A DNA stretch of 64,000 bases from a virus (lineage: Duplodnaviria; Heunggongvirae; Uroviricota; Caudoviricetes), in the IMG/VR virus record IMGVR_UViG_2684623171_000009, one strand, 5' to 3'. The notes below the pieces were generated by a model. The model was not told the DNA's origin. It was given only the letters and a program-made list of their open reading frames with translations, and made no database searches. Below are positions 35,630-36,642 of this stretch, in pieces; positions within the stretch are counted from its first letter, which is position 1, and each line of letters opens with the position of its first letter. A program made the translations under genes and the position numbers.

Positions 35630-35839
35630 ATGCCAAACAAAAAAAGAAATCCGCTTATTGAAAAACAGATTGAATGCCTGGTAAATCAACTCAGGCAATC
35701 AGGGTTATTAAAAACTCATTCAGAGTTGAGGCTCACAGAATCAGCATTCGACGATAAATTAAATAATGTCCTTTATAATGGCATTATTGATTTTAATCGT
35801 TCTGTTGGTCGCCGCGGCCCTGCTGGTGTTTCCTTATAA
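35630..35839 (+). CDS. Hypothetical small protein (69 aa), convergent with the 212-aa gene
   Basis: GGAGG 5 nt upstream of ATG; shares a C-terminal FDD(E/K) motif with the 4928..5128 protein; stop abuts the partner's stop. Confidence 0.45.
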   Translation: MPNKKRNPLIEKQIECLVNQLRQSGLLKTHSELRLTESAFDDKLNNVLYNGIIDFNRSVGRRGPAGVSL

Positions 35840-36478
35840 TTACCAGTCAATCCAGAGTGGACCGTGTTCAGCGTAAATATAACTGTACACATCCAGATTA
35901 TATTTGTGGTCTGTTAAGAACAGGCCGCAAATACATGCCGAAGCTTCCAGTGCAGCGGCTCTGTTACTGAATAACCATGTAGCAACATTCCAGCGTTTTT
36001 CTGCATCCCAGTCTTTCTCAAGGCCTGATACCATGAAGAAACCGTTAGTGTTGCCATCAAATAATTCTGTTTCCAAATTTTTAAGCAATGCCTGATGGAC
36101 TCTTGCCAGGTATTCCGCCGGAATTTCGCCACGAATTCTGATGAGATTGTCATAAACAAACATGTTCCCCGCATATGGCGATTTTTCTTTCTTGTTTTTT
36201 AAACCAGCATCATGAGCAAACTGATCAATTTCTTCTTCCGTTGGTTTCGTATTGATGTTTTGCGCTGTCGTTTCTGCAATTTTATTTGCCACACTCTCTG
36301 AGTCGTGTTTATTTATAGACGCACAGAAATACAATCCGGTAAACGCATCGCGCACATTACGAGCCATATTATCAGTGTCTTTTTTCGTTACCGATTCCAA
36401 TTCAAGTTCGTTCAGACGATGACGAAGTGTGTGTGCTGCAATCTCCTGGATTGAAGGAGGTAAATCTTTAAATTCCAT
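35840..36478 (-). CDS. Hypothetical protein (212 aa) in the repressor-proximal accessory slot
   Basis: Complete ORF with GAGG upstream of the MEFKDL start; no recognised domain; downstream of CI on the same strand. Confidence 0.5.
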   Translation of the reverse strand: MEFKDLPPSIQEIAAHTLRHRLNELELESVTKKDTDNMARNVRDAFTGLYFCASINKHDSESVANKIAETTAQNINTKPTEEEIDQFAHDAGLKNKKEKSPYAGNMFVYDNLIRIRGEIPAEYLARVHQALLKNLETELFDGNTNGFFMVSGLEKDWDAEKRWNVATWLFSNRAAALEASACICGLFLTDHKYNLDVYSYIYAEHGPLWIDW

Positions 36479-36489
36479 CGTCAACCTCA

Positions 36490-36642
36490 TCAGTCAGTGT
36501 TTCTGGCTAACCAGCGACGCGCGCCAGCTTCAGTTTTAAACGTTTTGCTTTTGGTATACGTCATCGCGGTGAACGTACCGTCCTGGTTGGGGAACACGCC
36601 ACATACCAGAGATTCGTTGTTGCCAAGATTGAGCGTATCCAT
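36490..36642 (-). CDS. YdfA-like small protein (50 aa)
   Basis: MDTLNLGNNESLVCGVFPNQDGTFTAMTYTKSKTFKTEAGARRWLARNTD with GAGG before the ATG. Confidence 0.45.
   Translation of the reverse strand: MDTLNLGNNESLVCGVFPNQDGTFTAMTYTKSKTFKTEAGARRWLARNTD

Follow-up and report, generated by a model that had tools for sequence, protein, structure and literature searches.

What is the function of two small genes that meet stop to stop beside the immunity region of a prophage, and do they act together? This question is raised by a 64,000-nucleotide (nt) stretch of DNA from the IMG/VR record IMGVR_UViG_2684623171_000009 (the window, whose numbering is used throughout unless another locus is named). One of its prophages, prophage B, carries a gene for a 212-amino-acid (aa) protein, here called X, and convergent to it a gene for a 69-aa protein, Y. 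An original prediction, made by reading the sequence, had described the two as a convergent cassette without recognisable domains, compared its position with that of rexAB in lambda, and taken its variable setting as the signature of a defence or superinfection-exclusion cassette. Our analysis points to one mobile two-gene module that would be set across the lysis-lysogeny switch. The reading we favour, which is tentative, is that X is an early-lytic accessory effector and Y a dedicated partner made at low level in lysogeny.

Both open reading frames (ORFs) were found where they had been predicted (Table 1). The Y stop codon TAA (35837-35839) touches the reverse-complemented X stop codon (35840-35842) to give TAATTA, with zero intergenic bases, and the back-to-back arrangement is kept at 71 of 74 IMG/VR loci. 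Judged by their substitution patterns, X and Y are real genes under purifying selection and not chance ORFs, because third-codon-position differences dominate between homologues and because both gave full-length matches to protein families. At codon positions 1/2/3, 9/8/22 and 28/18/50 differences were counted for Y (homologues down to ~50% identity) and 16/12/27 for the C-terminal domain (C-domain) of X against Salmonella; the third-position excess was also seen across X homologues down to ~30-70% identity. The full-length matches were to phrog_2151 (1.8e-147) and phrog_4274 (1.2e-51), both without assigned function in PHROGs, and phrog_4274 was the sole PHROG match of Y.

The predicted lack of a recognisable domain was confirmed as well. 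Searches of Pfam, NCBIfam and PADLOC returned zero domain matches for X or Y and nothing useful for their relatives, and neither protein matched PADLOC-DB v2.0.0 at E<=1; in that database, the neighbouring ydfA gave only a chance-level match to AbiEi (E 0.047). Profiles of the X C-domain, the X N-terminal domain (N-domain) and Y gave chance matches only in a sequence search of the PDB, and a scan of the GTDB species-representative genomes for X and for Y gave no match. Among the INPHARED phage isolates X was matched via its N-domain only and Y was unmatched, and a literature search found no paper on either gene. X and Y are new protein families. The window is 100% identical over 16 kb to Escherichia coli O157:H7 strain FRIK2455 and others, and the pair differs in GC content (X 41%, Y 37%) from its flanks (50-51%).

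The association of the two genes was followed across elements and genomes. Y was present at 74 of the 78 IMG/VR X loci with enough flanking DNA, and X at all 74 Y loci, with zero Y-only loci. At the four X-only loci the body of Y is deleted, a remnant of its start is kept and the X ORF is intact. A query that covered Y and the X C-domain was run against 5426 complete E. coli genomes; 600 (~11%) matched, 594 of them over both genes, and carriers include the O157, O121, O111, O103 and O145 pathotypes. A module of this frequency is nevertheless unnamed.

The pairing was also found on other backbones. The close Salmonella X/Y pair follows an integrase, a Mu-type or XRE repressor, a small helix-turn-helix (HTH) protein and a 106-aa ORF, with Y again convergent on X. 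All four distant C-domain homologues have the order integrase, C-type repressor (P2-type switch), Cox, X and convergent Y. In these distant pairs the X C-domain is ~30% and Y ~50% identical to the proteins of the window, and an 11-nt overlap replaces the abutting stops. As far as these sequences go, X and Y stay paired when N-terminal domain, backbone and upstream DNA are exchanged.

When would X be made? On the minus strand the order is cI, operator, promoter, leader, ydfA, X (with Y opposite), hairpins, dicF, dicB, a DUF1482 gene and recE; the neighbours named in the original prediction (a YdfA-like DUF1391 gene, DicF as recognised by Rfam, dicB, and a CI-like repressor with HTH and S24 domains) are thus all in place. 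Because an operator-like palindrome and a PL-like promoter lie between cI and ydfA, X is by all sequence signs the second gene of a repressor-controlled early-left (PL-like) operon, like the dicBp operon of the K-12 prophage Qin, and should therefore be off in a lysogen. Sites related to the operator (GTTTTGATTnTAAAC) were found in the cI-cro intergenic region at 37574-37589 and 37620-37635. The other prophage of the window, prophage A, has an aligned promoter in the same layout (TTGACT-17-TAAACT) and a near-identical leader at 5283-5460 (few mismatches over ~170 nt aligned). In prophage B the X start follows the ydfA stop after only 11 nt, and the ~270 nt upstream of dicF align closely with K-12 Qin, with an identity that falls toward the hairpin HP1 described below. 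DicA represses the dicBF polycistron of Qin, whose transcription begins at dicBp, upstream of ydfA (PMC10448788).

The operon position also decides the comparison with rexAB. X/Y and rexAB share, with the BstA-type defences, the character of accessory cargo beside a temperate-phage immunity region. In lambda, rexAB is transcribed together with cI and sits between that gene and PL; in prophage B, however, the palindrome and the PL-like promoter separate cI from the cassette, so that X lies downstream of the promoter, with Y on the other strand, and the proposed rexAB-like position did not hold. The original prediction had also assigned a toxin-antitoxin module and a zinc-ribbon gene of prophage A to a single syntenic slot, and these proved to be two slots merged. 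relB/relE follow the prophage A repressor and lie upstream of the PL-like promoter (5283-6485 region), which is the true rexAB-like position, filled within the window in prophage A only. The zinc-ribbon gene (66 aa, ECs_2282 family, 4928-5128, plus strand) is found downstream of that promoter, ahead of ydfC and dicF but on the opposite strand, and is the positional counterpart of Y; ydfA is truncated in prophage A.

Y needs its own promoter, because no plus-strand gene lies upstream for more than 2 kb. A putative promoter was located from the sequence (Table 1), with a -10-like hexamer that stands 7-8 nt 5' of HP1 in most, though not all, contexts. Salmonella elements with non-homologous upstream DNA have an extended -10 at this place (TGgTATAAC in locus L002, TGcTATATC in L007); the exceptions are L006, which lacks a clear hexamer, and L015, which has only TAAGCT. 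A further promoter match at 35602-35631 of the plus strand was rejected: with a -10 that runs into the start codon of Y, it cannot serve this gene. That Y starts at 35630 follows from a Salmonella-type homologue (L009), in which a stop codon comes shortly before this position, and the ATGGAG before Y is therefore the source of the Shine-Dalgarno sequence and not an alternative start.

The leader of Y would span ~90 nt with three predicted hairpins (z = -2.55 for the whole-leader fold). HP1 contains two invariant U.G pairs, which form on the Y strand only, and is kept in K-12 Qin (L005, ~4100-4130) and in Salmonella elements that have a P2-type switch; it could mark the start of the Y mRNA, a site where the dicF precursor is processed, or a limit of recombination. 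At the position of the middle hairpin, other loci have an inverted repeat of different sequence, as seen by eye. The third hairpin, HP2, has a consensus structure across eight loci with one compensatory change (CUCCU/AGGAG, L015). Transcription from PL is expected to run antisense across all of Y, because there is no room for a terminator between X and Y and the transcript must reach dicF and dicB.

X is an acidic, soluble protein (isoelectric point (pI) 5.2, net charge about -10) with no transmembrane segment and a two-part architecture. Its N-domain, which proper spans residues 1 to ~60-90, is common to many small early-left proteins with unrelated C-termini (phrog_1363, 9419, 6937 and 33007; ~45 cluster representatives; Stx2 phages) and occurs in two mosaic variants inside the X family. 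The C-domain is a generic ACT/ferredoxin-like sandwich. Its invariant residues, as defined by the distant homologues, are mainly hydrophobic or Gly/Pro, and the polar invariants (a Tyr, an Asp, an Asn and a Glu) form no recognisable catalytic set. A generic sandwich fold without conserved catalytic residues suits a binding module, and for the C-domain a role in binding or regulation seems likelier than an enzymatic one.

Among 1.84 billion cluster representatives, an exhaustive profile search yielded just two distant relatives of the C-domain, and a profile word-search added two further ones. These four Salmonella-type proteins are 206-286 aa long and have another N-terminal domain (MFNVKRNG...). 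The 286-aa homologue (P0175; L100-L102, 5001-5861) carries a CI-like XRE HTH (…PSSRYINALAVVLKCESEWLLHG) between its N- and C-terminal domains and lies in the usual Cox-X-Y context on at least four contigs, a hint that proteins of the X family work at DNA or the immunity region, or close to either.

Several assignments for X were considered and discarded. Comparison with BFVD gave template modelling (TM) scores of 0.3-0.5 to Prp/YsxB-like "cysteine protease" folds, and a protease was rejected because no His or Cys is conserved family-wide. A SUKH/SMI1-like immunity domain, prompted by the motif IPxxYL...FDGxxNG, found no profile or fold support. An N-like antiterminator role for the N-domain was dropped since the domain is acidic and not arginine-rich, and a CII-like regulator since most X proteins lack an HTH. 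The fold comparison gave no nuclease- or kinase-like match, and no match to HEPN was obtained by sequence or fold.

Y, in turn, is basic (pI 9.7) and soluble, has no transmembrane segment, and is probably helical according to its sequence. The alignment shows the conserved features SGLLK, AF..KL and a C-terminal tail RRxPAGVxL.

These properties suggest the following course of events. X would be made only after induction or infection, from the repressor-controlled PL-like operon, while Y would be made at low level as long as the prophage is repressed: its own promoter, within the dicF precursor region, would be weak, and its leader would hide the ribosome-binding site. The two genes would then be wired for mutually exclusive expression. 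Most likely, Y antagonises or regulates the C-terminal domain of X and serves as a lysogeny-phase brake on an early-lytic effector, which would buffer leaky or spontaneous firing of PL. The Y promoter, the reciprocal expression and any binding between X and Y are what we infer from the sequence. "Y modulates X" is somewhat likelier than "X switches off a stand-alone exclusion protein Y", because of the presence asymmetry, the small size of Y with its lack of membrane or enzymatic features, and the complementary charges (pI 5.2 for X vs 9.7 for Y). Since X and Y lie within the DicF/DicB operon, Y and antisense transcription could also modulate the DicF/DicB outputs. DicF and DicB affect cell division, metabolism, phage receptor function and the virulence of enterohaemorrhagic E. 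coli.

Several findings weigh against this reading. The asymmetry counts are small (four X-only vs zero Y-only loci), most loci counted are near-identical O157-type prophages, and the tight linkage could result merely from lying between the same recombination boundaries. Other cassette types occur X-only or Y-type-only, so that pairing is not obligatory across the hotspot. The promoter match of Y is weak (8/12) and falls under the threshold of the promoter scanner. Furthermore, HP1 is present in K-12 Qin, which has no Y, and may serve the early-left transcript instead of Y.

Table 1. Features of the X/Y locus in prophage B (positions in the window; residues refer to X).
Feature	Position	Strand	Description or evidence
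X	35840-36478	minus	212 aa; RefSeq "hypothetical protein" WP_000394548.1
X residues 1-92	36203-36478	minus	helical acidic N-domain (MEFKDLP...) and linker
X residues 93-212	35840-36202	minus	conserved alpha/beta C-domain, bbabbab sandwich
Y	35630-35839	plus	69 aa; RefSeq "hypothetical protein" WP_001133037.1
Putative Y promoter	35507-35535	plus	TTTTCA-17-TAAACT; predicted from sequence
HP1 hairpin	35541-35567	plus	GCCGGA...UCCGGC = GCGCCGGACACGGnTnnGnATCCGG; RNAalifold; slot boundary on the dicF side
Middle hairpin of Y leader	35571-35593	plus	minimum free energy structure of the window leader
HP2	35594-35623	plus	CUCCAU pairs with AUGGAG; masks Shine-Dalgarno GGAG (35620-35623)
CI-like repressor	36935-37573	minus	212 aa; HTH_3 2.4e-4 and Peptidase_S24 8.2e-13 (Pfam)
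Operator-like palindrome (OL-like)	36850-36869		ATGTTTTTTTATCAAAACAT; abuts -35 of PL-like promoter
PL-like early-left promoter	36822-36850	minus	TTGACC-17-TAAACT; promoter scan
Conserved leader	36643-36821	minus	~180 nt; aligns with prophage A
ydfA-like gene (DUF1391)	36490-36642	minus	PF07151 3.6e-30; first operon gene
dicF small RNA	35240-35291	minus	Rfam RF00039, 75 bits, E 1.9e-15; same early-left operon

A role in defence or superinfection exclusion, as originally predicted, is possible for X/Y. In its specific form, Y blocks incoming phages in the lysogen, and the cognate phage makes X early to neutralise Y, after the logic of SieB/Esc or Tha/Ith, which keeps lytic growth of the prophage possible; we regard this form as doubtful, though as a serious rival of the favoured reading. 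Its best precedent is sieB: in K-12 Rac (L019, 4672-5312), sieB on the plus strand converges with a 4-nt overlap on ydaF, a DUF1391 gene on the minus strand, and thus occupies the opposite-strand position of Y, just downstream of the repressor and the early-left promoter. Lysogens express sieB, which together with esc is found in Rac, lambda and P22; by means of Esc and an antisense RNA the phage evades the exclusion that it exerts itself. The resemblance is one of position, however. SieB (162 aa) and the soluble basic Y share no sequence similarity, no Pfam, NCBIfam or PHROG link connects Y to sieB, and the partner of Y is a separate convergent gene and not an in-frame internal product. Exclusion would also suit a slot that is hypervariable and AT-rich, as expected of arms-race cargo, and in which small convergent genes persist in defective prophages although the partner beside them has decayed (L018; prophage A, with its zinc-ribbon gene). 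On the other hand, X and Y lack any PADLOC, Pfam or NCBIfam match, and Y, with neither a transmembrane segment nor an enzymatic motif, is unlike known exclusion proteins. Neither a complete X nor Y was found among the sequenced phage isolates of INPHARED. Moreover, Y was never found without X (0/74), though Y alone would still benefit the host; with X sometimes found without Y, the asymmetry fits a Y that serves X better than a stand-alone defence protein.

The second precedent for exclusion is an antisense pair of defence and inhibitor genes documented in S. aureus prophages (PMC11087260); it is equally a precedent for the mutually exclusive expression that our favoured reading supposes. Tha and Ith overlap in antisense in the prophage regulatory region, where one promoter is controlled by the switch and the antisense one is constitutive, so that lysogeny and lysis each have only one of the two products (PMC11087260). 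X/Y resembles this pair in that X belongs to a switch-controlled unit and Y is convergent on X. The polarity is reversed, however: the large HEPN defence gene of the staphylococcal pair lies in the cI operon with the small inhibitor antisense to it (PMC11087260), whereas in X/Y the lytic operon holds the large gene, with the small one antisense to it. Besides, neither HEPN nor any other effector domain could be recognised in X. The X/Y architecture is a variant of known prophage antisense and accessory arrangements, and X/Y is a lead and not an established system. If X and Y are indeed an effector and its antisense antagonist, the wiring principle of the antisense switch extends from staphylococcal to lambdoid and P2-like enterobacterial prophages.

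The variability of the slot was examined in 68 IMG/VR loci that carry both ydfA and HP1. A synteny survey of this kind had been proposed with the original prediction, and it gave 14 unrelated configurations, or clusters, of the DNA between the two markers: 32 loci are K-12-like, eight are of the X/Y type, and the remainder hold N-domain proteins with or without various convergent ORFs. Hence, the claim of variable cargo within conserved flanks stood, also in view of the AT-rich interior and of sieB in Rac, whereas the defence character read from it found no homology in PADLOC. In annotated E. coli slots, ydfA is followed by an N-domain protein of 121-179 aa, a different convergent gene of 64-92 aa, and dicF. 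These alternative small genes overlap the 3' end of the N-domain gene and belong to PHROGs of unassigned function. Some of them keep the Y leader and the first four codons (MPNK) and are otherwise unrelated to Y; among such cases is an 80-aa zinc-ribbon gene. K-12 Qin holds ydfB/ydfC at the position of X and has no convergent gene. These share with X the place in the operon, between ydfA and the dicF precursor and with homologous flanks; YdfB and YdfC are, however, unrelated in sequence to X and Y, and both are encoded on the operon strand.

A wider generalisation, which we consider unlikely, is that the ydfA-dicF slot of Rac/Qin-type prophages and the post-cox slot of a Salmonella element with a P2-type switch form an unrecognised polymorphic hotspot of phage-phage conflict modules, each an early-lytic effector with an antisense inhibitor made in lysogeny. 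A constant N-terminal domain would carry a swappable C-terminal "warhead", and the cognate small inhibitor would be encoded antisense to it. When related phages superinfect, their effector would then not harm the lysogen, and on induction transcriptional collision would tip the balance the other way. Of such modules X/Y would be the most fully developed, its warhead being a folded domain of 115 aa from a new family. Polymorphic toxin-immunity systems share the layout of a constant N-domain and swappable C-termini, each with its own small gene beside it, and the wealth of alternative cassettes within conserved flanks. They differ from the present case in that no toxin domain and no secretion or delivery domain could be identified (neither was found in X and nine other N-domain/C-domain relatives), in that the small genes here are convergent and not downstream on the same strand, and in that several N-domain proteins are partnerless. 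If X and Y prove to be an effector and its antisense antagonist, the slot would stand out as a compact hotspot: within its conserved flanks, 14 or more types of cargo could be searched for new small inhibitors, exclusion factors or counter-defences.

The same mosaic could be explained without any functional link, by X and Y as independent morons that co-travel because they share recombination boundaries in the N-domain coding region and in the Y leader with HP1. The conserved flanks with a swapped interior, the same leader and MPNK before the unrelated zinc-ribbon gene, the sharing of the X N-domain by many proteins, and cassette types with or without a convergent gene all fit this explanation. 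We nonetheless judge it rather unlikely, since the pairing of C-domain and Y persists after both flanks are replaced (another N-domain, a Cox-type backbone, non-homologous upstream DNA) and down to ~30% (X) and ~50% (Y) identity, with abutting or overlapping convergence kept. Shared recombination boundaries alone are hard to invoke for a pairing that survives such exchange.

A classical toxin-antitoxin or abortive-infection module, with X as a growth-arresting toxin and Y as a labile antitoxin that stabilises the prophage or kills infected cells, is highly improbable: the tight linkage to a small basic partner, the tail RRxPAGVxL as a (speculative) degron and the toxin-antitoxin modules common nearby (relBE in prophage A, hok downstream) are outweighed by genes that are convergent and not a co-directional autoregulated operon as in type II systems, by an X in the early operon under phage repressor control instead of constitutive expression, by X-only loci with an intact X ORF, by a fold without nuclease- or kinase-like match, and by the lack of similarity of X and Y to any toxin or antitoxin family in Pfam, NCBIfam and PADLOC.

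Some further observations concern the history of the cassette. At locus L091 (3274-4161, IMG/VR), an X variant ends in ...WIDWFKG, and a MEDK start remnant is fused to the 3' end of X; Y-less X variants with the ...WIDWFKG end carry a convergent gene of 211 aa with a coiled-coil region and a C-terminal zinc ribbon. In the Salmonella locus L002, X is directly preceded by a remnant of 19 codons (MFNVKRNDFSVEIVGYINE*) from the alternative N-terminal domain (5934-5993), and a second N-domain gene (119 aa, 6979-7338) follows Y, preceded by a repeat of the X-upstream sequence. By sequence, remnant and repeat are recombination footprints of cassette exchange.

Annotation of the region is uneven. In E. 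coli 2014C-4587, an unannotated convergent ORF of ~100 aa (L017, ~3040-3400, minus strand; phrog_8894, E 6e-34) overlaps the 3' end of a 122-aa N-domain gene, and convergent small genes of this slot are under-annotated. RefSeq, through the Prokaryotic Genome Annotation Pipeline (PGAP), gives the prophage B repressor as a 112-aa C-terminal "LexA family protein" (WP_001416688.1), which appears to cut off the N-terminal HTH_3 DNA-binding domain of an intact 212-aa ORF. In the dicB leader, immediately after dicF, Rfam gave a match to STnc100 that stayed below threshold (35033-35242, minus strand; 34.7 bits vs a gathering threshold of 47, E 1.4e-4). Finally, the ydfA frame is open upstream to an ATG at 36723, which allows a possible 77-aa form through the leader (36490-36723); the 50-aa form is the one that matches DUF1391 and RefSeq.

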